A stretch of 32,000 nt of DNA, taken from positions 1 through 32,000 of the forward strand of contig NZ_FNIL01000014.1 of the NCBI RefSeq assembly GCF_900103955.1. Direction: 5' to 3'. The stretch's first letter is position 1, and each line of letters opens with the position of its first letter. Shown here piece by piece: positions 1 to 29,197 of this stretch. A model generated the notes under the pieces. The model was given only the letters and a program-made list of their open reading frames with translations. It did no database searches and was not told the origin of the DNA. A program made the translations under genes and the position numbers. Source of the DNA: Alkalicoccus daliensis (lineage in GTDB: Bacteria > Bacillota > Bacilli > Bacillales > Salisediminibacteriaceae).

Positions 1-790
1 GTAAAATAAGCGGGCAAGCGAATAAATTAGCTTCTTTTCCTCTGTCATTTTCCATTATGGGAATGGTTTGAATGAAGGAGGTCATATGCTTTTACAGGGT
101 TTGCCGTACCGAGCCGGCGCAGGCATAGCAAGGTGGAGTGCAGCATAGCATGGGTGGATTAAAGTATAGGAAGTTTTTATTAAAGTATGGGCGGATCGGA
201 GTAAAGCATAGCCTGTTTTCATGTCATTATAGGCGGATCGGAGTAAAATAGCAGCCACGACAGTAAAATAAGCGGGCAAGCGAATAAATTAGCTTCTTTT
301 CCTCTGTCATTTTCCATTATGGGAATGGTTTGAATGAAGGAGGTCATATGCTTTTACAGGGTTTGCCGTACCGAGCCGGCGCAGGCATAGCAAGGTGGAG
401 TGCAGCATAGCATGGGTGGATTAAAGTATAGGAAGTTTTTATTAAAGTATGGGCGGATCGGAGTAAAGCATAGCCTGTTTTCATGTCATTATAGGCGGAT
501 CGGAGTAAAATAGCAGCCACGACAGTAAAATAAGCGGGCAAGCGAATAAATTAGCTTCTTTTCCTCTGTCATTTTCCATTATGGGAATGGTTTGAATGAA
601 GGAGGTCATATGCTTTTACGGGGTTGCCGCACCGAGCCGACGCAGGCATAACAGGGTGGAGTGCAGCATAGCATGGGTGGATTAAAGTATAGAGGAATTG
701 GGTTAAAGCATAGGAGGTTTGGAGTAAAATATAGAGGAGTTGAAGTAAATTAAAGGGAAGATCAGTAAAGTATAAGCAGATCTGAGTATA
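1..790. repeat. Higher-order tandem repeat array 1. The unit is 262 bp. Units 1-262 and 263-524 are identical, and the third unit (525 to about 790) is diverged. Each unit has a roughly 70-bp core plus about 10 degenerate 20-21-bp sub-repeats (GCGGATCGGAGTAAAGCATAGC-like).
   Basis: Direct reading shows the sequence from 1 repeating exactly from 263 and again from 525. The identical 65-aa shadow ORFs at 82-279 and 344-541 confirm the 262-bp period. The array touches the window edge, so it may extend upstream. Confidence 0.9.
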
Positions 791-6623: not shown

Positions 6624-6694
6624 CATGTCTCCTGCCGTGTAATTAACTTGTCTTCTATAGTACGGGGATCTACTTGAAAAAGCAAGTCTGCTCA

Positions 6695-7624
6695 TTATTC
6701 ACAAACAAGAATCTCCCGGGAAAACATCTTATTTTTGCCTGCAGTACCCCGATCGATAATAGCAAATCCTGCTTTCTTTAATAGATGATCCAGCGGTTCA
6801 ATCGTAATAATAACCAATCGTTGTGTGAAATTTCGTGCAGACTGCAGCATTTCCAGTTTCGTTTCCTCTGGTAAAACAGAACATAGGTTGTAAGGCATAT
6901 CAATCACTGCTGCATCGTAGCTTTTTTCTATCATCCGCATGTCTTGTAACGCCGTATCCGGCGCGAAACCGAAGTGGGACAAATTTTTTCGGAGCCCGTA
7001 CATTACTTTGGGATTCACGTCACTTCCATCCATTTGGATCCCCATCGATCTCGCTTCGATTACTACTGTTCCAATACCGCAGCACGGATCAATTGCATAA
7101 ATGCCCGAGGGATTTGGAACGGCAATATTTGCGGCACTCCTTGCCACTCTTACCGGCAGCGCAGTGGAGTAAGAGTGCGGCTTCTGCTCCTGCTTTTTCC
7201 ACGCGGAAGAACCGCAGGTCAATGGACCGAATACCCAGCTGTTTTGCGCGGGGAAAATTGCAAAAAGATGCGCCGGATCCGCCAGGTTTATTTTCCCATC
7301 GAGCATACCGGCAGCAGCAATTTCCCTTTGTTTTCGATCTTCAAATGAGGTAGGAAGGGCATGATTCTTCACGAATTGTACTTTGAAAGAAGCTGTCAGC
7401 GGAGGGTGGGCGCGGAGCTTTTCCAACAGAGCTTCCCATGTAGCACTTTCATATAGAACCTCAATTTTTTCTTTCAAAAAAGGGGAGCGGCCGGGGTCCA
7501 GGCTGATGCTGCTCCTTAACGAACCGCCGCTGCCTTCCTCTACGAAAAACGCTCTTAATTCAAGCGCGCACAAACTCTCTTCCTCCGCACGCGCATTATA
7601 CGTGTAAATAAAAGTATTATTCAT
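6695..7624 (-). CDS. SAM-dependent RNA (guanine-N2/adenine-N6 type) methyltransferase with a THUMP-like N-terminal domain
   Basis: Motif I is DPCCGIGT and motif IV-like is DMPYN. The N-terminal ~150 aa has the spacing typical of THUMP-methylase fusions. Confidence 0.7.
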   Translation of the reverse strand: MNNTFIYTYNARAEEESLCALELRAFFVEEGSGGSLRSSISLDPGRSPFLKEKIEVLYESATWEALLEKLRAHPPLTASFKVQFVKNHALPTSFEDRKQREIAAAGMLDGKINLADPAHLFAIFPAQNSWVFGPLTCGSSAWKKQEQKPHSYSTALPVRVARSAANIAVPNPSGIYAIDPCCGIGTVVIEARSMGIQMDGSDVNPKVMYGLRKNLSHFGFAPDTALQDMRMIEKSYDAAVIDMPYNLCSVLPEETKLEMLQSARNFTQRLVIITIEPLDHLLKKAGFAIIDRGTAGKNKMFSREILVCE

Positions 7625-11136: not shown

Positions 11137-11171
11137 ATTTTTGCGCGCTACTTTATATAAAGCAGGTGAGG

Positions 11172-12188
11172 ATGATGAAGAAAAAAGTGAGGCTCGCACT
11201 GCTGGGCGGCTGGCATGTGCATACGGAAGGATTTATTGAAAAACTGGACGCTTTTTCCAAGGATAAAGTGGAATGGAAAGCAGTCTGGGATCACGATCAG
11301 GCAAGGGGAGAGAGGTTTGCAGAAAAACTCCAGGTTCCTTTTGTTCCAAAACTGGAAGACATCCTGGAAGATACATCGGTGGATGCAGTAATGATAGAAG
11401 CAGAAACGAACCTTCACCACGAATTAATTACGATGGCAGCGCGTGCAGGCAAACATATATTTACAGATAAACTTCTCGCACCGACGATGGAAGAAGCGGA
11501 AGATATTCGCTGGACAGTGAGGAAGGAAGGGGTTAAATTCGTGATCTCCCACGAGTCCCTTACTATCCGCGCGTATCAGTATGCAAAGGAAGAAGTGGAG
11601 AAGGGGAACCTCGGCGAACTTGTATCCATCTACTTCCGCCGGTCCCACGGCCTTGCGAAAACGGATGTTCTTCCTGCCAGCTGGTACGAACCCGAAACTG
11701 CGGGAGGCGGAGCGCTGATGGATCTCGGTGTACATGGGCTGTCTCTACTTGCCTATATCGGCAGTGCACCGGAAACTATCAGTGCTGTTACAAGGTACAT
11801 CTCTGGAAAGCAAGTGGAAGACAGTGCCAGCATCCAGGTCACATTCCAAGATAAGCAGACGATAGGACAGGCGCATACGAATTTAGTAACAGCACCGCTT
11901 GATAATCTGTTGGAAATCACGGGCACTGAAGGCAGCCTGCTGATCTATGGGGAAAAGGAGCCGCTCATCTATCAATCTTCCGGGCAGGACAAACCGTCCC
12001 GGGTAGATGTGCAAGAGACAGGCGAGGTCCCTGTAAATAAGTTCATTGATTTGGTGCTGGGAGAAGAAAATCAAACCGAGCTGACAGGGAGCGGACTGGA
12101 ACTGGACACTGCAGTGACCATTGTGCAAATGGCAGAAGGAGCCTATAAGAGTGTGAAGCAGCAAGGGAAGCCGGTTGTATTAAAATAG
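11172..12188 (+). CDS. Gfo/Idh/MocA-family NAD(P)-dependent oxidoreductase
   Basis: The N-terminal Rossmann strand is VRLALLGGWHVH. The length and C-terminal alpha/beta domain are typical of the family. The start is ambiguous (GTG 11166, ATG 11172 or ATG 11175). Confidence 0.75.
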   Translation: MMKKKVRLALLGGWHVHTEGFIEKLDAFSKDKVEWKAVWDHDQARGERFAEKLQVPFVPKLEDILEDTSVDAVMIEAETNLHHELITMAARAGKHIFTDKLLAPTMEEAEDIRWTVRKEGVKFVISHESLTIRAYQYAKEEVEKGNLGELVSIYFRRSHGLAKTDVLPASWYEPETAGGGALMDLGVHGLSLLAYIGSAPETISAVTRYISGKQVEDSASIQVTFQDKQTIGQAHTNLVTAPLDNLLEITGTEGSLLIYGEKEPLIYQSSGQDKPSRVDVQETGEVPVNKFIDLVLGEENQTELTGSGLELDTAVTIVQMAEGAYKSVKQQGKPVVLK

Positions 12189-12204: not shown

Positions 12205-12415
12205 CTATGCTTGCGCAGCCGGGACAGTGCGGGGGATTTGAAAAAATGAATTCCACCGCTGGAAAAATGAATTCCTTCAAAATTCCCTTCTTAAAAATGA
12301 GTAACCCCCACTTACGCGTGAGTAAATGGTCTGCGCGAGAGTTAACCCCGAAGAAAAATGAGTAAACCTCTATTACGTATGAGAAAATGGTCTCTAAAAA
12401 AGAGTAAAAGCCATT
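12205..12415. repeat. Degenerate array of roughly 20-bp sub-repeats of the GAGTAAA type (AAAAATGAATTCC / AAAAATGAGTAAC / GTGAGTAAATGGTCT ...)
   Basis: Direct reading finds at least 7 related short units in an intergenic region. The array is preceded by GGAGG-N8-ATGCTT, resembling the core end (AAGGAGGTCATATGCTT) of the 262-bp repeat family. Confidence 0.5.
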
Positions 12416-12512: not shown

Positions 12513-14633
12513 TTAAGACCGCTGTTTTAATTGAATTTCCTCTTTTTCCACAACTACTTCCACTTCACCGAGCACTTCCTGATCCAGGATCAGCTCGGTA
12601 ATTTTATCTTCCAGTTCATGCTGAATCGCGCGGCGGAGCGGCCGTGCTCCGAACTCTTTATGGTAGCCGAGTTCTGCAATCTTTTCTTTTGCTTCTTCAG
12701 AAATATGAATCGTAATTTCCTGCTCCGTCAGTGTTTCCTGAAGTTCTTCAAGCATGAGATCCACAATTTTCACAAGATGTGTTTTGTCGAGGTGGTTGAA
12801 TTCAATAATCGCATCAAATCGGTTAAGAAATTCCGGCTTAAAATAGCTCGACAGATTTTCAAGCATGGATTCTTCCTTTAATGACTCGCTCTCGCTGAAT
12901 CCGATGGAGCGTTGTTTTGCAGCACCGCTGCCAGCGTTGCTTGTCATAATAATCACTGTATCTTTAAAGCTTACAGTGCGTCCCTGGCTGTCTGTTAAGC
13001 GGCCGTCCTCCATAATCTGCAGGAACATATGCTGCACATCAGGATGTGCTTTTTCAATTTCATCGAGCAGAATAATGGAGTATGGGTTCCGGCGCACTTT
13101 TTCGGTCAGCTGGCCGGCTTCTTCATGCCCGACATACCCTGGAGGGGAACCGATCAGCTTGGATACCGCGTGCTTTTCCATATATTCACTCATGTCGAGC
13201 CGGTGCATCGCCTCGCTCGAGCCGAACATTTCTTTTGCCAGTGTTTTACTAAGCTCTGTTTTTCCGACACCGGTAGGCCCGACAAACAGGAAGGAACCAA
13301 TCGGACGGTGCTTTGGCTTCAGCCCGGCGCGGGAGCGGCGGACCGCTTTTGCTACCTTCTGCACCGCTTCTTCCTGGCCGATTACACTGCCGGAAATATG
13401 CTCTGCGAGACGCTTCATTTTCGAAGCTTCGTTGTCCTGCAGCTTGCCGACAGGGATTCCCGTCATTTTCTCGACAATTTTTTGGATATTCTCTGCTTCA
13501 ATCGTTTTCTTTTCTGCAGAGTGTTCCTGCTCCAGTTTTTTCTCCAGCGCTTCTTCTTCGTCACGAAGCTTTGCAGCTGTTTCATAATCTTCTTTTTGGA
13601 GCACTTCTTCTTTCTGTTTTGCGATACGCGCAAGTCTTTCTTCTACTTCTTTATGGGAAGTATCTCCGGACTCCAGGTTCATTTTTGCCCCTGCTTCATC
13701 CATCAGGTCGATTGCTTTATCCGGAAGAAAACGATCCTGGATGTAACGGTGGGAAAGTGTAACGCAGGCCTGCAGCGCTTCTTCACTGTAAGTTACTTCA
13801 TGATAATCTTCATACTTACTCTGCAGTCCTTTTAAAATTTCCATTGCTTCTTCCAAGGCAGGTTCATTGACCATTACCGGCTGAAAACGGCGCTCCAGCG
13901 CACCATCTTTTTCAATATTACGGTATTCTTTCAGCGTGGTCGCACCGATGACCTGCAGCTCTCCTCTTGCAAGCGCCGGTTTAAGAATGTTTCCGGCATC
14001 CATGGAACCTTCTGTTTTTCCTGCGCCTACAATCTGATGGATTTCATCAATAAACAGCAGCACATTTTTGCGTTCTTTCAATTCCGCAGTAAGCTGTTTT
14101 AATTTTTCTTCAAATTGTCCCCGCACCCCAGTATTTGCTACGAGAGATGCTACATCAAGAAGATAGATTTCTTTATTCAGCAGTTTTGAAGGAACGTCTC
14201 CTTTACTGATTTTTAAAGCGAGTCCTTCTGCGATTGCAGTTTTTCCCACGCCGGGTTCCCCGATCAGCACCGGGTTATTTTTAGTGCGGCGGTTTAAAAT
14301 TTCTGTAACTCTTTTCACTTCCTGATCGCGTCCGATCACAGGATCAATTAACCCGGCGTTTGCAGCGTTAGAAAGGTTGCTGGCAAGTTCATCAAGCAGG
14401 CTTTGACTTTTCTGAGACTGGCCGGGCTGTGCAGCTTCACTGTCTGAAGATCCGCCGAATTGGTTCATCATATTTTCTTTAAAGACACCAGCTGGATTTC
14501 CTGCATGATTTTTTGCAGCAGACTGGAGCTCTTCAAAACAGCTCTTACAAAGTTTTACGTGCTGCGCTTGTTGATTATATTGTAAACGTACATTGATCGA
14601 TGCTTCTCTAATATTACAATTTTGACATTTCAT
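12513..14633 (-). CDS. clpE: ATP-dependent Clp protease ATP-binding subunit ClpE (class III heat-shock AAA+ ATPase)
   Basis: The N-terminal zinc finger is CQNC...CKSC. Two AAA+ modules are present (GEPGVGKT and GPTGVGKT Walker A). The length matches ClpE at about 700 aa. CtsR operators lie upstream. Confidence 0.9.
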
Positions 14634-14674: not shown

Positions 14675-14722
14675 TTTGACTATCTTTGACTATAGTATAG
14701 TTTGACCTTTACTGACTTTCAA
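14675..14722 (-). promoter_or_regulatory. clpE sigma-A promoter overlapped by two CtsR operators
   Basis: On the minus strand, -35 TTGAAA (14717-14722) and -10 TATACT (14694-14699) are separated by 17 bp. AGTCAAAgatAGTCAAA (14675-14691) matches the CtsR consensus (A/G)GTCAAA-NAN-(A/G)GTCAAA perfectly. AGTCAGTaaaGGTCAAA (14701-14717) is a second, imperfect site. Confidence 0.7.
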
Positions 14723-14809: not shown

Positions 14810-15013
14810 TTACGTGTTGTTACTTTCGTTACTCGTACCTTCTTCATTTCCGGTGTCATGTTCCATTTCGTTTCCGGTATCAGTACTGTTGATTCCGTTG
14901 TTTTCATTGAATCCATTTTCCGGAGCGTTGTTATTATCTGTTCCGCCGCAGCCTGCGAGCAGTGCTCCCGCAAGAAAAGTTGCTGCAGCAGTTAATTGAA
15001 GTGATTTTTTCAT
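14810..15013 (-). CDS. Small hyper-acidic N/D/E/G-rich lipoprotein (67 aa), paralog 1 of 3
   Basis: MKKSLQLTAAATFLAGALLAGC provides the lipobox LAGC. The RBS is AATAGGAGG. The mature peptide is low complexity (N, E, D, T, G). Confidence 0.8.
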   Translation of the reverse strand: MKKSLQLTAAATFLAGALLAGCGGTDNNNAPENGFNENNGINSTDTGNEMEHDTGNEEGTSNESNNT

Positions 15014-15069
15014 TTTGGTATTCCTCCTATTATCCTTCGTTTATCTTCTCATTCACGGTTACAAAAAAA

Positions 15070-15099
15070 TTGAAACATATTTTCCAGGATTCATATAAT
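15070..15099 (+). promoter_or_regulatory. Candidate sigma-A promoter on the plus strand, divergent from the 15013 gene and pointing at motif copy B and antisense to 15311-15514
   Basis: TTGAAA (15070-15075) and TATAAT (15094-15099) are separated by 18 bp. No credible plus-strand CDS lies downstream. Confidence 0.4.
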
Positions 15100-15169
15100 T
15101 TCACACACGAAAACCAATGTTACCATGATGCTTCAGACGAAAAAGTATGAAGCATAGAGGAATTTCTAT

Positions 15170-15248
15170 TACTGCTTCACTCCCGGCAAAGTCTTTCTCG
15201 AAGGTATGCTCTCTATTAATTTAATCAAAGCGGTGCACGGCTTCCATC
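15170..15248 (+). repeat. Bipartite conserved motif, copy B (TACTGCTTCACT - 53 nt - GCACGGCTTCCATC)
   Basis: The blocks are identical to copy A at 7687-7762. It is preceded by the hairpin ATGCTTCA-N12-TGAAGCAT (15128-15155), which repeats the TGCTTCA core. Confidence 0.4.
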
Positions 15249-15260
15249 AATCTGCAGGAG

Positions 15261-15299
15261 CAAACATAAACAAGGAATTCTCTTTCGAAAGAGAATTCC
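15261..15299 (-). terminator. Rho-independent terminator of lipoprotein gene 15311-15514
   Basis: On the minus strand, GGAATTCTCTTTCGAAAGAGAATTCC is followed by a T-rich tract (TTGTTTATGTTTG). Confidence 0.8.
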
Positions 15300-15310
15300 C
15301 AGAAACCAGC

Positions 15311-15514
15311 TTACATATTGTTCTCGTTCTCTCCGACAGGTTCACCATTATCATCCAGCATCGTATTGCCGTCTGCATCGTTATCAATCAATTGTTCTTC
15401 TTCATTCACTTCATTGTTATCATCAATACCTTCATTTGCATTATTACCGCAGCCGGCAAGAATACCAGCAGATAACAAAGTGAATACTGCAGAAATTTGT
15501 AAAGACTTTTTCAT
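15311..15514 (-). CDS. Small hyper-acidic N/D/E-rich lipoprotein (67 aa), paralog 2 of 3
   Basis: MKKSLQISAVFTLLSAGILAGC provides the lipobox. The RBS is GAAGGAGG. The N-terminus is near-identical to those of the neighbouring paralogs. Confidence 0.8.
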   Translation of the reverse strand: MKKSLQISAVFTLLSAGILAGCGNNANEGIDDNNEVNEEEQLIDNDADGNTMLDDNGEPVGENENNM

Positions 15515-15604
15515 TTATAATTTCCTCCTTCAAAAATACTCTTCTTATAAAAAGACTATTACACGATTCTTGCTTTTTAAAACGTTGTTTTCCAGGAGAA
15601 ATAA

Positions 15605-15634
15605 TATAAAAAGGCTCCCGGAAGTCCGGGAGCC
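15605..15634 (-). terminator. Rho-independent terminator of the poly-Asp lipoprotein gene
   Basis: On the minus strand, GGCTCCCGG-actt-CCGGGAGCC is followed by TTTTTAT. Confidence 0.85.
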
Positions 15635-15645
15635 CGCTTTAAAAA

Positions 15646-16032
15646 TTAAAGGTCGTCGTCATCGTCGTCATCGTTCATCATGCCATCATCATCGTCTTCG
15701 TCATCGTTCATCATGCCATCATCATCGTCGTCGTCATCGTCATTCATCATTGCGTCATCATCATCATCGTCGTCGTTCATCATAGCATCGTCATCGTCGT
15801 CATCGTCATTCATCATTGCGTCATCATCATCGTCATCGTCGTTCATCATTGCGTCATCGTCATCATCGTCATCGTCATCGTTCATCATACCGTTATCTTC
15901 AGTATTGTTTACTGTGTTATCCGTTCCGGTATTCGTATTATTTACATCGTTATCTGCATCGTTACCGCAGCCTGCAAGCACCCCTGCTGCGAGTAGTCCT
16001 GAGATTGCTGAAATTTGTAATGATTTTTTCAT
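15646..16032 (-). CDS. Poly-aspartate repeat lipoprotein (128 aa), paralog 3 of 3
   Basis: MKKSLQISAISGLLAAGVLAGC provides the lipobox. The RBS is TAAGGAGG. An N/T/D linker is followed by seven MMNDDDDDDD(A/G) units. Confidence 0.85.
   Translation of the reverse strand: MKKSLQISAISGLLAAGVLAGCGNDADNDVNNTNTGTDNTVNNTEDNGMMNDDDDDDDDDAMMNDDDDDDDAMMNDDDDDDDAMMNDDDDDDDAMMNDDDDDDDDGMMNDDEDDDDGMMNDDDDDDDL
15649..15888 (-). repeat. Intragenic tandem repeat, 33-39-bp period x7, encoding MMN-(D)7-9-(A/G/L)
   Basis: The periodicity is visible in both DNA and protein. The units differ by synonymous GAT/GAC changes. Confidence 0.85.
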
Positions 16033-21169: not shown

Positions 21170-22777
21170 ATGGATGGCATGAACAGGATGACGGGGTTTG
21201 CCTCCGGAATGGATATAAACCAGATGGTATCAGATTTAATGCGAGCGGAGCGGCAACCGCTGGAACCTATGCAGCAGAATTCTATGGAGCTGCAGCTGAA
21301 AATTGATGAATACAGGCAGATGAATTTAAAATTTTCGGAGTTTCGCAACAACACGTTTGACGGTATTTTACGCTCCTCTAACATGCGGTCAAGAGAAACT
21401 GTCAGTTCCAATGAAGCTGCTGTGACTGCACGGGCTTCCGCAAGTACGCCAGAGGGAAGCTACACCATATCCGATGCTTCTCTCGCCAGGGCGGAAATGC
21501 ACGTATCTGAAGCGGCGGGAGAAAACGGGTCTTTTGTAAATGACCTAGCTGCATTTGACCGCAGTGAAAGTTTTCTCCAGCAGGCAGAACTTTTACATGG
21601 CGTAGAAGAAGGCCAGACCGAAGCTGCGTTTGCTATTGCAGTATTTGATGAAAATGGTGCTGCAGTGCCGCAGGAATTTACTGTGGATGAAAGCAGCAGT
21701 CTCGATGATATTCTCAATGATGTGAATCAGTCTGCATTAGGTGTACAGGCTTTTTATGATGAATTCTCCGGAAGGATTTCTCTGCAGAGAGCAGAAACGG
21801 GCGTTTTTAATGAGACTGGGAATGAAATTCAGTTTGGGGAAATAGATGCAGACGGGGAGTTTATAGAAGCTGAACCAGGAGAGCAGCATTTCTTTTCCAC
21901 GGCCTTTGGGCTGGAAAACAATACGCCGATGCAGGAAGCAGCAAATGCGGCCTTTACGATGAATGGGCTCAGTGAAATGGAAAGACGCAGCAATTCTTTT
22001 GAAATAAACGGGTTAAATGTAACTTTGAATCAGCCCTTCACTGAACAAGTATCGATCGGTGTATCTTCAGATGACGAAAAAATATTTGATACAGTAATGG
22101 GATTTGTTGAAGATTATAATGAGCTCGTAAGTGCAATGCAGGAAAAAACAGGGGAAGAATATTTCCGGGATTATGCACCTCTAACAGATGAGCAGCGGAG
22201 AGAATTATCAGACACAGAGGTGGAAATGTGGGAGGAAAAGTCAAACAGCGGCCTGCTGCGGAGAGACAGTATTATTTCGGGTGCGGTCAGCTCCATGAGA
22301 TCCCAGTTTTATGAACCGGTGAATACAGCGGATGGTGATCAGGCTTTCACACAGATTACAGAAATAGGCATAACTACTTCCACCGATTTCCGCCAGGGCG
22401 GGATACTGGAAGTGAATGAGGAGCAGCTGCGCGCCTCTATCGCGGAAGATCCGGATGCGGTATTTAACTTATTTGCCGCAGATGGAGAAACACAGGAAGA
22501 GCGCGGAATAGCGAGAAGGCTCCGTGCTACGCTCGACGACAGCATCCAGCAGATCGGACAGCGTGCCGGACGCACGGAAATGTCCGGGAATCAGACATTT
22601 ACTCTCGGCAGGGAGCTCGAACAGCAGTCAGATCAAATTTCGAATTTTGAGCGACGGATGCAGCAGGTCGAACAGCGTTACTGGAGCCAGTTCAATGCTA
22701 TGGAACAGGCAATGGCCCGTGCGAACGCACAGGCCGAACAGCTGATGTCGCAGATGGGCGGCAAGCAGGGAATGTAG
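21170..22777 (+). CDS. fliD: Flagellar filament cap protein FliD, copy 1 (535 aa)
   Basis: The N-terminus is GFASGMDINQMVSDLMRAERQPL. The C-terminal FliD helix is FERRMQQVEQRYWSQFNAMEQAM. Confidence 0.85.
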   Translation: MDGMNRMTGFASGMDINQMVSDLMRAERQPLEPMQQNSMELQLKIDEYRQMNLKFSEFRNNTFDGILRSSNMRSRETVSSNEAAVTARASASTPEGSYTISDASLARAEMHVSEAAGENGSFVNDLAAFDRSESFLQQAELLHGVEEGQTEAAFAIAVFDENGAAVPQEFTVDESSSLDDILNDVNQSALGVQAFYDEFSGRISLQRAETGVFNETGNEIQFGEIDADGEFIEAEPGEQHFFSTAFGLENNTPMQEAANAAFTMNGLSEMERRSNSFEINGLNVTLNQPFTEQVSIGVSSDDEKIFDTVMGFVEDYNELVSAMQEKTGEEYFRDYAPLTDEQRRELSDTEVEMWEEKSNSGLLRRDSIISGAVSSMRSQFYEPVNTADGDQAFTQITEIGITTSTDFRQGGILEVNEEQLRASIAEDPDAVFNLFAADGETQEERGIARRLRATLDDSIQQIGQRAGRTEMSGNQTFTLGRELEQQSDQISNFERRMQQVEQRYWSQFNAMEQAMARANAQAEQLMSQMGGKQGM

Positions 22778-23731: not shown

Positions 23732-23788
23732 TATATCGTTTAATGATATATCTGTTAATAATATATCATTAAACGATATAATGATCAA
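23732..23788 (-). promoter_or_regulatory. PadR promoter with a perfect 20-bp inverted repeat (probable autoregulatory operator)
   Basis: TATATCGTTTAATGATATAT (23732-23751) and its exact reverse complement (23761-23780) are separated by 9 bp. On the minus strand, -35 TTGATC (23783-23788) and -10 TATATT (23760-23765) are separated by 17 bp. Confidence 0.65.
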
Positions 23789-24061: not shown

Positions 24062-24634
24062 ATGAGAGAAGAAAAACAGAGGAAAATTGTGGATGCAGCG
24101 ATGGAAGTTATTGAAGAACACGGATTTGAAAAAGCATCTGTTTCTCAGTTTGTGAAAAGGGCAGGAGTCGCGCAGGGGACTTTCTATTTATACTTCTCCT
24201 CCAAAAATGAAATTGTTCCTGCGATCGCAGAAAGAATCTTGACAGAGCAGCTGAAAAGGGTGCAGGAGAGAGCAGGGGAAAGCCCTTCCCGCAAAGAGCT
24301 CCTGCACGCGCTGATTGATATTACATTTGATATTACAGAAGAATACAAATCGCTGATCAGCTTCTGCTACGCAGGGATTGCGCTGTATTATTCTTTCGAA
24401 CGATGGGAAGAAATCTACCGTCCGTATTACAGCTGGCTGGAGGAACAATTTGAACATCTGCGCAGCGATAAAAAAATAGCGGGAAATGTAGCGCTGGCAT
24501 ATCAGGTAAATTATACGGTCGGCTTAATTGAACACGGTGCAGAATCTTATTATTTATCCCATACCGCTGCTGGGGACAGGAAAGAAATGAAGAAGCAGCT
24601 TTATAAATTTACAAAACAGGCACTTTATGCTTAA
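24062..24634 (+). CDS. TetR/AcrR-family transcriptional regulator
   Basis: The N-terminal HTH is FEKASVSQFVKRAGVAQGTFYLYFSSKNEIV. The RBS is AGGAGGG. Confidence 0.85.
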   Translation: MREEKQRKIVDAAMEVIEEHGFEKASVSQFVKRAGVAQGTFYLYFSSKNEIVPAIAERILTEQLKRVQERAGESPSRKELLHALIDITFDITEEYKSLISFCYAGIALYYSFERWEEIYRPYYSWLEEQFEHLRSDKKIAGNVALAYQVNYTVGLIEHGAESYYLSHTAAGDRKEMKKQLYKFTKQALYA

Positions 24635-25653: not shown

Positions 25654-25721
25654 GATAAATAGCATAATATATCGGGTAATTTACAGTTCCATACAACAGA
25701 ATAGTCAGAGGAGTGAAAGAC

Positions 25722-27509
25722 ATGCGGCTTAGCGGATTTGCTACCGGAATGGATATCAATCAGATGGTGAAGGATTTAATGCAGGCGGAAAAAATGCCTT
25801 TAAAAAAATTAGAGCAGAATAAAACATCTACACAGTGGAAGATTGATCAATACAGAGAAATTAATGTGAAGATGGATAAATTCAGAAACAATACGTTTGA
25901 TAATGTCATGCGACGTGCCAATATGATGATGAATACGGTAGTGAGTTCCAACGCATCGCTTGTCACTGCGACAGGAAATGCATCTACGTTAGAAGGAACG
26001 CTGCGTTTAACAGAAGTGAAAAAACTGGCTTCCGCAGCTTCAAATGCGAGCAGTGCTCCGGTAGCTGATAAATTAAATGTGACCGGAAAACTTTCTGAAC
26101 AGAATTTTAAAGCAGCGGAAGGGGAAATGTGGAAAACAGGAACGGTAAACAGGCAGACGGTGACCGTACAGCAGTCACAATCTACCATTGATTTGAACGT
26201 GGAGCTCGGAAATCCTGATTCCACAGTCGTGCGGGTCAATGGGGTTTCTTATAAGGTAGTAGAAGAAATGCCGGAAGGCGGACTAACTGCAACACAGGTA
26301 ATGCTTGATGCGGATTCCAAACAGCTTGTATTCGGCTCTGCTTTAGCCCGGAATGCTAAGGTGGAAGTTGTGACGGCAATTGAAGGAGAAGGAACGGATA
26401 AATTCTCCATGAATTCTATTACTACTTTTAATAAAGACGGCCAGGAAGTAAAGGAAAACTTTATTGTTACCGGTAATCAGACTATGAATGAAGTTATGTC
26501 TATGCTGAACCGTTCAAAAGCAGGCGTCAGCACTTTTTATGATACAGGAACGGACCGTGTCTCCATCGTACGGAACGATACTGGAATTTTTGCTCCGGAA
26601 GGCAGTGAAATGCGTTTTTCCGGCTCCTTTTTCGAACAGGGACTAAAGCTGAGCGATACGAATGAAATTGCCGCACAAAATGCAACGTTTACGATTAACG
26701 GTTTGGAAACAACGAGGCGTTCCAATACTTTTTCGGTCAACGGCATGAACATTACGCTGCATGAAACTTTTGCAAACCGGGAAGTGAATTTAAACGTTAA
26801 GCGGGATACAGATAAAATTGTAGAAACGATTATGTCTTTTGTAAATGAATATAATGAACTTCTCGAACTGGTGAATGGTAAAACAAGCCAGGAATTTTTC
26901 CGGGATTATCCACCGCTGACAGAAGAAGAACGGCGTGAGTTATCAGAGCGGGAAGCAGAACTCTGGGATGAAAAAGCAATGAGCGGCCTGCTCCGCAATG
27001 ATTCCATGCTGAGAAACGGCATGAATAATTTCCGCCAGCAGATGTACGGCCAGGTAACAGGCGGGATTGATACGCAAATACGGCAGCTTGCCCAGATAGG
27101 AATTACCACTACGTCCAATTTCCGTGACGGCGGAAAGCTGGAAGTAAATGAAGATCGTCTTCGTGCAGCTATCGAAAGCGATGCAGAGGGTGTCTATCAG
27201 CTGTTCGCGGCAGATGGTCCCACCCAGGCAGAGCAGGGAATTGCCAGAAGAGTCCGGACGAGTGCGAATACAATGATTGAAGCGATTGCGCAGAGAGCCG
27301 GAGGAATGCGGGGACGAACGGTGAACCAGCAGTTTACGCTCGGCCGGGAAATGAACAATATCGAAGACCGGATGACGAATTTTGAGCGGCGGATGAAGCA
27401 GGTGGAGCAGCGCTACTGGACACAGTTTACTGCGATGGAAAAAGCGGTATCCCGGGCAAATTCCCAGGGAGAAGCACTTTTTGCACAAATGTACGGAGGC
27501 ATGCAGTAA
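25722..27509 (+). CDS. fliD: Flagellar filament cap protein FliD, copy 2 (595 aa)
   Basis: The N-terminus is GFATGMDINQMVKDLMQAEKMPL and the C-terminus is FERRMKQVEQRYWTQFTAMEKAV. The ATG at 25722 is 8 nt after AGAGGAG. Confidence 0.85.
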   Translation: MRLSGFATGMDINQMVKDLMQAEKMPLKKLEQNKTSTQWKIDQYREINVKMDKFRNNTFDNVMRRANMMMNTVVSSNASLVTATGNASTLEGTLRLTEVKKLASAASNASSAPVADKLNVTGKLSEQNFKAAEGEMWKTGTVNRQTVTVQQSQSTIDLNVELGNPDSTVVRVNGVSYKVVEEMPEGGLTATQVMLDADSKQLVFGSALARNAKVEVVTAIEGEGTDKFSMNSITTFNKDGQEVKENFIVTGNQTMNEVMSMLNRSKAGVSTFYDTGTDRVSIVRNDTGIFAPEGSEMRFSGSFFEQGLKLSDTNEIAAQNATFTINGLETTRRSNTFSVNGMNITLHETFANREVNLNVKRDTDKIVETIMSFVNEYNELLELVNGKTSQEFFRDYPPLTEEERRELSEREAELWDEKAMSGLLRNDSMLRNGMNNFRQQMYGQVTGGIDTQIRQLAQIGITTTSNFRDGGKLEVNEDRLRAAIESDAEGVYQLFAADGPTQAEQGIARRVRTSANTMIEAIAQRAGGMRGRTVNQQFTLGREMNNIEDRMTNFERRMKQVEQRYWTQFTAMEKAVSRANSQGEALFAQMYGGMQ

Positions 27510-28397: not shown

Positions 28398-28457
28398 AAA
28401 ACACAAACAGCGGAAAGCCGGCAATGCTGGTTCTTTCCGCTTTTGTGTTTTTTTATT
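28398..28457 (+). terminator. Strong rho-independent terminator after flaG
   Basis: A long stem (AAAACACAAACAGCGGAAAG ... CTTTCCGCTTTTGTGTTTT) is followed by a T-run. Confidence 0.85.
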
Positions 28458-28461
28458 GATT

Positions 28462-29105
28462 TGGAGGAGATAGTTCAGGATAGCGTGGTGACATGTCAGT
28501 ATAGAGGATTTATGTGTCATTATAGAGGGTTTGCATGTTAGTATAGCCGGTTTGTATTAAAGCATAGCGGCATCGGAGTAAAGCATAGCGGATTTGGAGT
28601 AAAATAAGGTGCGTGACAGTAAAATAAGCGGGCACGGACGTAAATTAGCTTCTTTATTTTAAGTTTCTCTATCGGGGAACGGTTTTAAATGAAGAAGGTA
28701 ATATGCTTTTATGGCTTTTGAGTCCGAATCAGTACAGGATAGCGTGGTGACATGTCAGTATAGAGGGTTTGCATGTTAATATAGCCGGTTTGGATTAAAG
28801 CATAGCGGCATCGGAGTAAAGCATAGCGGATTTGGAGTAAAATAAGGTGCGTGACAGTAATATAAACGGGCACGGACGTAAATTAACTTCTTTATTTTAA
28901 GTTTCTCTATCAGGAAACGGTTTTAAATGAAGAAGGTAATATGCTTTTACGACTTGCGCTCTCGGGTCAGTAAAGTATAGCGTGGTGACATGTCATTATA
29001 GAGGGTTCGCATGTTAGTATAGCCGGTTTGGATTAAAGCATAGCGGCATCGGAGTAAAGCATAGCGGATTTGGAGTAAAATAGGGTGCGTGACAGTAAAA
29101 TAAGC
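28462..29105. repeat. Higher-order tandem repeat array 2. It belongs to the same family as array 1, with units of about 259 and 238 bp plus a partial third unit.
   Basis: The unit start CAGGATAGCGTGGTGACATGTCAGTATAG recurs at 28476 and 28735, and in diverged form at 28973. The sub-repeats (TAAAGCATAGCGGCATCGGAG...) and the core (TAAATTAGCTTCTT...GAAGAAGGTAATATGCTTTTA) are homologous to array 1. Confidence 0.9.
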
Positions 29106-29170: not shown

Positions 29171-29197
29171 TAAAACTTTCGACCTGTGTGCCGATAT
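29171..29197 (+). promoter_or_regulatory. Sigma-D-type promoter upstream of fliS
   Basis: TAAA (29171-29174)-N15-GCCGATAT (29190-29197) is an exact consensus match. Confidence 0.7.

Follow-up and report, generated by a model that had tools for sequence, protein, structure and literature searches.

BOX, RUP, and SPRITE are species-restricted composite repeats that have been judged to be parasitic (PMC3049150). The BOX element of Streptococcus pneumoniae consists of the modules boxA, boxB (in a tandem run), and boxC (PMC3049150), and the STAR elements of Staphylococcus aureus are interspersed, intergenic direct repeats that are conserved in a locus-specific manner and undergo expansion and contraction (PMC3532100). 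Here, we describe two intergenic arrays in a 32,000-nucleotide stretch of the Alkalicoccus daliensis genome (contig NZ_FNIL01000014.1, positions 1 to 32,000, forward strand; hereafter, the window), in which blocks of 21-bp sub-repeats and a palindromic core alternate within tandem units of 238–262 bp. We assign a probability of roughly one half to the reading that these arrays are a lineage-specific composite interspersed repeat, that is, a bacterial 'satellite' with higher-order structure that is non-coding, most likely selfish or neutral, and akin to BOX and STAR. To our knowledge, chromosomal arrays of such a design have not been described in Bacillaceae. If the reading is correct, they would add one more species-specific family to the catalogue of bacterial interspersed repeats, a category that is already familiar, and their unusually clear two-level structure would make a compact case for slippage and concerted evolution in a bacterial chromosome. 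Greater significance would follow if the curved, phased sub-repeats bound a protein or were transcribed.

The arrays resemble BOX in being intergenic, non-coding, and composite, with an internal tandem module of variable copy number and strongly base-paired parts; as with BOX, they are restricted to one species or its closest relatives, may give rise to spurious open reading frames (ORFs), and are judged parasitic. The BOX-type composition, a block plus a core, occurs at two loci of the window and at a third locus elsewhere in the genome. The arrays differ from BOX in several respects: the tandem module measures 21 bp here and approximately 45 bp in BOX, the whole composite unit is itself tandem, three loci are known compared with more than 100, and no terminal inverted repeats were found at the array ends. 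The likeness to STAR lies in short direct repeats at fixed intervals at intergenic sites of a Firmicute, in loci that expand and contract, in conservation within and distinctness between loci, and in locations that vary between species. However, STAR repeats are 14 bp long and GC-rich with spacers of at least 40 bp, whereas the present arrays consist of contiguous, AT-rich 21-bp units and a palindromic core, and the STAR motif T(G/A/T)TGTTG(G/T)GGCCC(C/A) had no match with up to two mismatches. By sequence, the arrays are not STAR elements, and no similarity to BOX would be expected.

Bacterial minisatellites (variable-number tandem repeats, VNTRs) and eukaryotic higher-order satellites show head-to-tail arrays, diverged edge units, homogenisation within arrays, and nested short sub-repeats, as seen here. 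Bacterial VNTRs are, in contrast, usually single-level and often coding, and compared with satellites the present arrays are tiny (0.65–0.8 kb); a dispersed higher-order structure with a palindromic core is unusual in bacteria. In Sporosarcina ureae DSM 2281, a 720-bp intergenic array directly follows a terminator (positions 6645–7364 of the fetched locus), with a 21/42-bp period (ATTGAGCGGATAGCACAACCG / ATAGAGCGCTCCACCCCCAAC) and a higher-order period of 207 bp. Its sequence is different and its architecture is of the same kind, which suggests that higher-order 21-bp arrays recur in Bacillales.

Two-level organisation of the arrays

Array 1 occupies the left edge of the window on the plus strand, where Tandem Repeats Finder reported a period of 262 bp with 2.6 copies and 98% matches. 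A preliminary description of this DNA, made from the sequence alone, had proposed a higher-order tandem repeat with two identical units and a diverged third, and each of these points was borne out by unit alignment. Unit 1 (1–262) and unit 2 (263–524) are 100% identical, base for base. Unit 3 (525–790), the edge unit, retains an intact core and a diverged, degenerate sub-repeat block: over approximately 100 bp from its start it matches units 1 and 2 at 99% identity, after which a 1-nt deletion is followed by 83% identity up to position ~734 and by degenerate 21-bp repeats up to ~790, giving a global identity of 83.5%. The array is cut at position 1, as had also been described, and the contig end may likewise cut it.

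A second array of the same family was found at 28455–29103 in the same orientation as array 1. It aligned to array 1 and contains three sub-repeat blocks and two cores in a 238-bp unit (Tandem Repeats Finder: period 238, 2.5 copies, 93% matches). Pattern searches of the window recovered the sub-repeat nine times and the core five times, while shuffled sequences gave an expectation of 0.00, so that chance can be excluded as the origin of the repeat. The identity between units was 84–100% within array 1 and 91.7% within array 2, but 64–68% between the arrays. Because units are nearly identical within arrays and much less so between them, homogenisation within loci is indicated, in agreement with the recent amplification or ongoing homogenisation that had been suggested earlier. 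The most diverged unit stands at the array edge, as expected for unequal exchange. The third locus of the family is annotated as 'partial', and was for this reason taken to lie at a contig end.

The sub-repeat consensus, GTAAAGCATAGCGGATTTGGA, joins an 11-nt half that is conserved (GTAAAGCATAG) to a G/T-rich half that varies. In a listing in 21-nt register, each block held approximately eight contiguous direct sub-repeats of 20–21 bp, fewer than the approximately ten per unit counted previously; the core and the best sub-repeat quoted at that time were both recovered where they had been placed. The 20–21-bp phasing, equivalent to two helical turns, was real: the autocorrelation of the repetitive part peaked at lags 21, 42, and 63 (0.44–0.64 compared with ~0.25 at other lags). 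On the basis of the phased listing, autocorrelation, and predicted curvature, the block of array 1 was placed at 118–288 on the plus strand; it recurs at 380–550 and, in degenerate form, at 641–790. The sub-repeats of this block are of the types ..GGATTAAAG, ..CGGAGTAAAG, and ..CATGTCAT, each followed by (C/T)ATAG, and over both arrays three subtypes (..CATGTCAk, ..GGATTAAAG, and ..CGGAGTAAAG) were distinguished. Blocks and arrays vary in the order and number of their sub-repeats; in array 2, the first block has one sub-repeat more than the second. The plus strand of the arrays is rich in G (28%) and poor in C (12–15%).

The core measures approximately 70 bp and lies on the plus strand at 23–94, with further copies at 285–356 and 547–618, in array 1, where it was recognised by pattern matches and by a nested hairpin in the minimum-energy fold, and at 28641–28711 and 28879–28949 in array 2, where the pattern, the fold relative to shuffles, and a covariance model identified it. 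The preliminary description had called it non-repetitive; it is not simply so, being an imperfect palindrome built of sub-repeat motifs. Its left arm (GTAAATTAGCTTCTTT) is a degenerate direct sub-repeat, and its right arm (GAAGGAGGTCATATGCTTTTA) has the form GAAG(G/A)AGGT(C/A)ATATGCTTTTAC, in which ATATGCTTTTAC is an inverted sub-repeat: read as its reverse complement, GTAAAAGCATAT, it is similar to GTAAAGCATAG. The two arms enclose a small hairpin, TTTC(T)C-loop-G(G)GGAA, behind which comes GGTTT(T/G)AA. In the fold, the Shine-Dalgarno-like GAAGGAGG pairs with CUUCUUU/CCUCU, and the 'ATG' sits within the inverted sub-repeat. For what had been described as a Shine-Dalgarno-like sequence plus ATG, the right arm of the palindrome is therefore the better explanation. 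The approximately 25 nt immediately 3' of each core are the most variable part of the unit in the array alignment.

The consensus fold of the three distinct core sequences contained 25 pairs, several of them G-U, and had an energy of -10.4 kcal/mol on the plus strand compared with -4.4 on the minus strand; the hairpin was common to both arrays, and covariation was minimal (two pairs among three distinct sequences). The plus-strand folds of the two array 2 cores (z = -2.5 and -3.5) and of the whole array 2 unit (z = -3.3) were each matched by none of 200 shuffles, while the minus-strand folds of core and unit gave z = +0.4 to +0.55. The unit of array 1 folded no better than its shuffles (z = +0.2). 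A covariance model of the core matched exactly the five known cores (GC 0.28–0.37) and detected no solitary core beyond these sites when applied to the window and to the loci retrieved from relatives.

Insertion sites and database searches

Array 1 ends approximately 100 bp upstream of a GNAT acetyltransferase gene, after which desR, desK, and des lie on the opposite strand. Array 2 is surrounded by genes for FlaG, a FliT-like protein, FliS, and a DUF8042 protein. In its left flank and outside the repeat, an intrinsic terminator of flaG was read from the sequence (28401–28455, plus strand), and relatives, too, carry a terminator behind flaG. In its right flank, again outside the repeat, a putative SigD-type promoter of fliS (TAAA-N15-GCCGATAT; 29171–29197, plus strand) was read against the consensus of Bacillus subtilis SigD promoters. 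In A. urumqiensis, A. chagannorensis, and a metagenome relative (75% FliS identity), fliS is likewise preceded by comparable GCCGATA-type elements. Both arrays stop 30–70 bp upstream of a promoter -35 region. Array 2 is absent from the flaG–fliS gap in these three relatives, and array 1 is absent from the gap upstream of the GNAT gene in two relatives (70% and 62% identity), where the order of desR, desK, and des is kept. In terms of compared gene order, both arrays are insertions into a conserved chromosomal arrangement.

The search for known RNAs and homologues outside the genome was negative throughout. No match to Rfam 15 was obtained in the window at the gathering score, and at E values up to 10 the arrays gave nothing except an 11.8-bit chance match; the tRNA and tmRNA search found none, and the window contains no transposase, consistent with the preliminary description, which had recognised no transposase, tRNA, or known non-coding RNA. 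Neither array had a blastn match with 11-base words among 72,556 plasmids and 50,697 phages, and two pattern scans of viral contigs returned 0 matches. A sub-repeat-pair pattern applied to 185,579 species genomes, one for each species, gave single chance matches only (a Vibrio gene and one Sporosarcina promoter region) and missed the window itself, so that this stretch is either masked in the collection or its genome is absent from it. A looser two-sub-repeat pattern gave 104 matches in metagenomes, all of which were unrelated 21-bp tandem repeats.

No coding signal was found in the arrays. The peptides behind the Shine-Dalgarno-like sequence (MLLQGLPYRAGAGIARWSAA, MLLWLLSPNQYRIAW, and MLLRLALSGQ) vary between arrays in length and sequence; the preliminary description had found them not conserved between units. 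The minus-strand ORFs (MPAYFTV...) have no ribosome-binding site and are 39–41% identical between arrays, and a word-indexed protein search returned nothing. In practice, the arrays yield spurious 'hypothetical protein' calls such as SDO53818.1. A tandem type I toxin-antitoxin system of the Ldr or Ibs type was rejected because no conserved small hydrophobic ORF lies behind a sequestered ribosome-binding site. A CRISPR array, of which the preliminary description had recognised no spacers, was likewise set aside: degenerate sub-repeats follow one another directly, with no unique spacer between them, and the sequence between cores is itself repeated between units.

AGCGG, the Chi sequence of B. 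subtilis, occurs ten times in the two arrays (1–790 and 28455–29103), always on the plus strand. The idea that the arrays act as Chi sites was not favoured, as array 1 has only one AGCGG per unit and the window is already skewed (72 on the plus strand and 34 on the minus strand).

Probable origin of the arrays and alternative explanations

From these observations we infer how a selfish or neutral composite repeat may have expanded and spread, and that it probably lacks a dedicated function. Each locus has the form (sub-repeat block–palindromic core), repeated a few times. The 21-bp sub-repeats would gain, lose, and reshuffle copies through replication slippage, and the 238–262-bp units would be duplicated and homogenised through unequal crossing-over or gene conversion between neighbours. 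Such exchange would keep units within a locus nearly identical and let loci drift apart. The family has reached at least three chromosomal sites, presumably by some insertion process, and at the two sites seen in full it is flanked by a terminator upstream and a promoter downstream. With arms that are sub-repeat motifs in opposite orientation, the core can fold into a hairpin when single-stranded, whether as DNA or as RNA, and is a plausible trigger of slippage or a handle for a trans-acting enzyme. Effects on the host would be incidental, for example strongly curved DNA just upstream of the GNAT and fliS promoters, or hairpins in read-through transcripts.

Several observations weigh against the interspersed-repeat reading. 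The three known loci are far fewer than those of classic parasitic repeats, although the draft assembly probably hides more, and the two arrays are oriented alike with respect to the gene that follows them. No terminal inverted repeat or target-site duplication that would explain dispersal was found at the outer ends of array 2, and the empty sites in relatives are too diverged to align. A hint of constraint comes from the core, which is conserved above its surroundings, at 96% for the units of array 2 and at 78% across the arrays. Where the array 2 cores differ, one change is at a bulge, one at a position unpaired in the consensus fold, and one is a G-U to A-U exchange. The better folding of the plus strand and a consensus sub-repeat that is predicted to be more curved than 98% of its own permutations likewise weigh against this reading.

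An alternative that we consider unlikely is that the arrays act at the DNA level as an architectural or protein-binding element, in which a protein that recognises specific DNA sequences would settle on the curved platform made by the phased 21-bp sites and the inverted motif pair of the core would be operator-like. Candidate proteins would be a nucleoid-associated protein, a regulator that binds head to tail (LytTR or OmpR type), or an adaptor like those of iterons or centromeres. Curvature was predicted with a dinucleotide wedge model with Bolshoy-Trifonov parameters, and the figures are approximate. The sub-repeat blocks were the most curved 126-bp segments of the window (ratio of end-to-end distance to contour length of 0.75–0.80 compared with 0.959 ± 0.035; minimum of 0.76–0.78 for the block of array 1), all 15 of the lowest ratios fell in the two arrays or in a weakly periodic stretch near 12.3 kb, and predicted curvature was maximal at a period of 21. 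The exact two-turn phasing, the alternation of the conserved 11-nt half with a variable half, the inverted motif copy in the core, and the position of the array ends just upstream of the promoters would also suit a binding array. However, 14–20% of random 21-mer arrays reached the predicted curvature of the real blocks, and known regulator sites comprise 2–4 repeats rather than approximately eight in each of three blocks. The different 21/42-bp array of Sporosarcina ureae was predicted to be straight, so that predicted curvature is not a general property of 21-bp arrays.

Among established systems, the iterons of theta-replicating plasmids and the centromeres parC of R1 and sopC of F also come close to the present arrays. 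Common to both are direct repeats of approximately 20 bp in helical phase, the motif in inverted form nearby (as in Rep operators), repeat blocks that flank a central core (as in parC), and predicted curvature; the present arrays, however, carry far more sites at each locus and occur at several loci in one genome. No ParA, ParM, TubZ, ParB, ParR, or TubR domain was found among 20 large ORFs scanned against Pfam, no Rep gene or other candidate binding-protein gene adjoins either array by the Pfam scan and the reading of neighbours, and neither array contains a DnaA box (TTATCCACA) with up to one mismatch. An iteron-type replication origin was therefore rejected despite the phasing, given also the chromosomal gene order and the lack of plasmid or phage similarity, as was a plasmid-type partition centromere (parC, sopC, or tubC), for which an adjacent partition NTPase or adaptor gene is missing. 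The preliminary description had placed the conserved blocks on one face of the helix and compared them with iterons and centromeres: the predicted curvature supports the geometric point without identifying a function, and the analogy fails for want of a Rep or Par partner and a DnaA box. Moreover, the arrays are chromosomal insertions absent from relatives, which argues that no conserved cellular process depends on them.

The stretch near 12.3 kb noted above (12238–12415) is intergenic, lying between a convergent oxidoreductase gene (11166–12188) and a Clp ATPase gene (12513–14633). It is weakly 21-bp periodic, with autocorrelations of 0.41 at lag 21 and 0.43 at lag 61, carries a repeated (A/G)TGAGTAAA motif, and is among the most curved predicted segments. 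Only GAGTAAA is common to it and the sub-repeat motif; it could be an eroded relative of the arrays.

It is quite unlikely, in our estimation, that the arrays work instead as an RNA element of the plus strand. The nested hairpin of the core followed by GGUUU(U) would then serve as an attenuator or terminator or would hide the Shine-Dalgarno-like sequence, and the purine-rich, C-poor sub-repeat tail would stay single-stranded as a platform, perhaps one that soaks up a protein. The late flagellar gene cluster, where CsrA acts in Bacillus, contains array 2. The strand-specific folding of the array 2 core and unit beyond shuffles, the consensus hairpin common to both arrays, the base composition of the plus strand, and the promoter/terminator scan, which flagged the inner hairpin as terminator-like, would fit such an element. 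Nevertheless, the array 1 unit folds like its shuffles, covariation among only three distinct cores is minimal (two pairs), and Rfam has no match even at E = 10. The same scan found no sigma-70-type promoter common to both arrays, inspection by eye revealed nothing consistent among SigD, SigB, and sporulation sigma-factor motifs within them, and no promoter was found in or before the arrays, while a strong terminator precedes array 2. Since a palindrome folds on either strand, the hairpin is in itself no proof of RNA. A CsrA sponge of the CsrB/RsmZ type was rejected: GGA occurs 3.0–3.4 times per 100 nt, against a window value of 2.4, a density for which base composition is sufficient explanation, and single units do not exceed composition-matched shuffles. 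CsrB-type sponges have approximately 5–6 GGA per 100 nt (about one per 17–20 nt).

An explanation that is compatible with the others is that assembly accounts in part for the perfect identity and for there being two identical units, the array being real and the number of traversals having been chosen at a contig end; we regard this as rather improbable. Array 1 begins at window position 1, the third copy was taken to stand at a contig end as well, and the species-genome scan gave no continuation of array 1. In addition, independent short-read contigs of the same strain from Logan start, in both arrays, at the last 31-mer common to the units (window positions 663 and 29053). Because short-read assemblies of this genome break inside these arrays, the copy number is uncertain. 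On the other hand, the break points imply at least two different continuations in the reads, and hence at least two unit types, and array 2, which is internal to its contig, shows the same higher-order structure at 92% identity.

Finally, it is very improbable that the core is a non-autonomous mobile element, a miniature inverted-repeat element with the arms GTAAA(TT)AGC and GCT(T)TTTAC that, together with subterminal 21-bp repeats, would bind a transposase encoded elsewhere, in the manner of Tn7, Mu, and Tn402-type elements with their multiple 19–22-bp end-binding sites: at least three dispersed loci absent from relatives, the inverted motif pair, the AT-rich core, and the intergenic insertion sites would suit it, but no target-site duplication or terminal inverted repeat was found at the outer ends of array 2, no solitary core occurs elsewhere in the window or in the loci of relatives, the window encodes no transposase, and nearly all sub-repeats are direct rather than arranged as two inverted ends.

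Other features of the window

Two fliD paralogues (21170–22777 and 25713–27509; 535 and 598 aa) share patches of 70–80% nucleotide identity. They are separated here by DUF2812, TetR, and cation-efflux genes and are adjacent in A. urumqiensis. A sequence at 14675–14693 (TTTGACTATCTTTGACTATC, reverse complement AGTCAAAGATAGTCAAA) looks like a CtsR operator with its heptad direct repeat and is located upstream of a minus-strand gene for a ClpE-like ATPase. On the same strand, three tandem genes for small lipoproteins (14810–16032) encode near-identical signal peptides (MKKSLQ..LAGCG), and the third lipoprotein contains approximately six tandem copies of poly-Asp plus (A/G)MMN, encoded by a 33-bp tandem repeat at 15652–15908. 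A perfect 20-bp inverted repeat at 23732–23780 (TATATCGTTTAATGATATAT / ATATATCATTAAACGATATA), approximately 280 bp upstream of the TetR-family gene at 24062, could be an operator.

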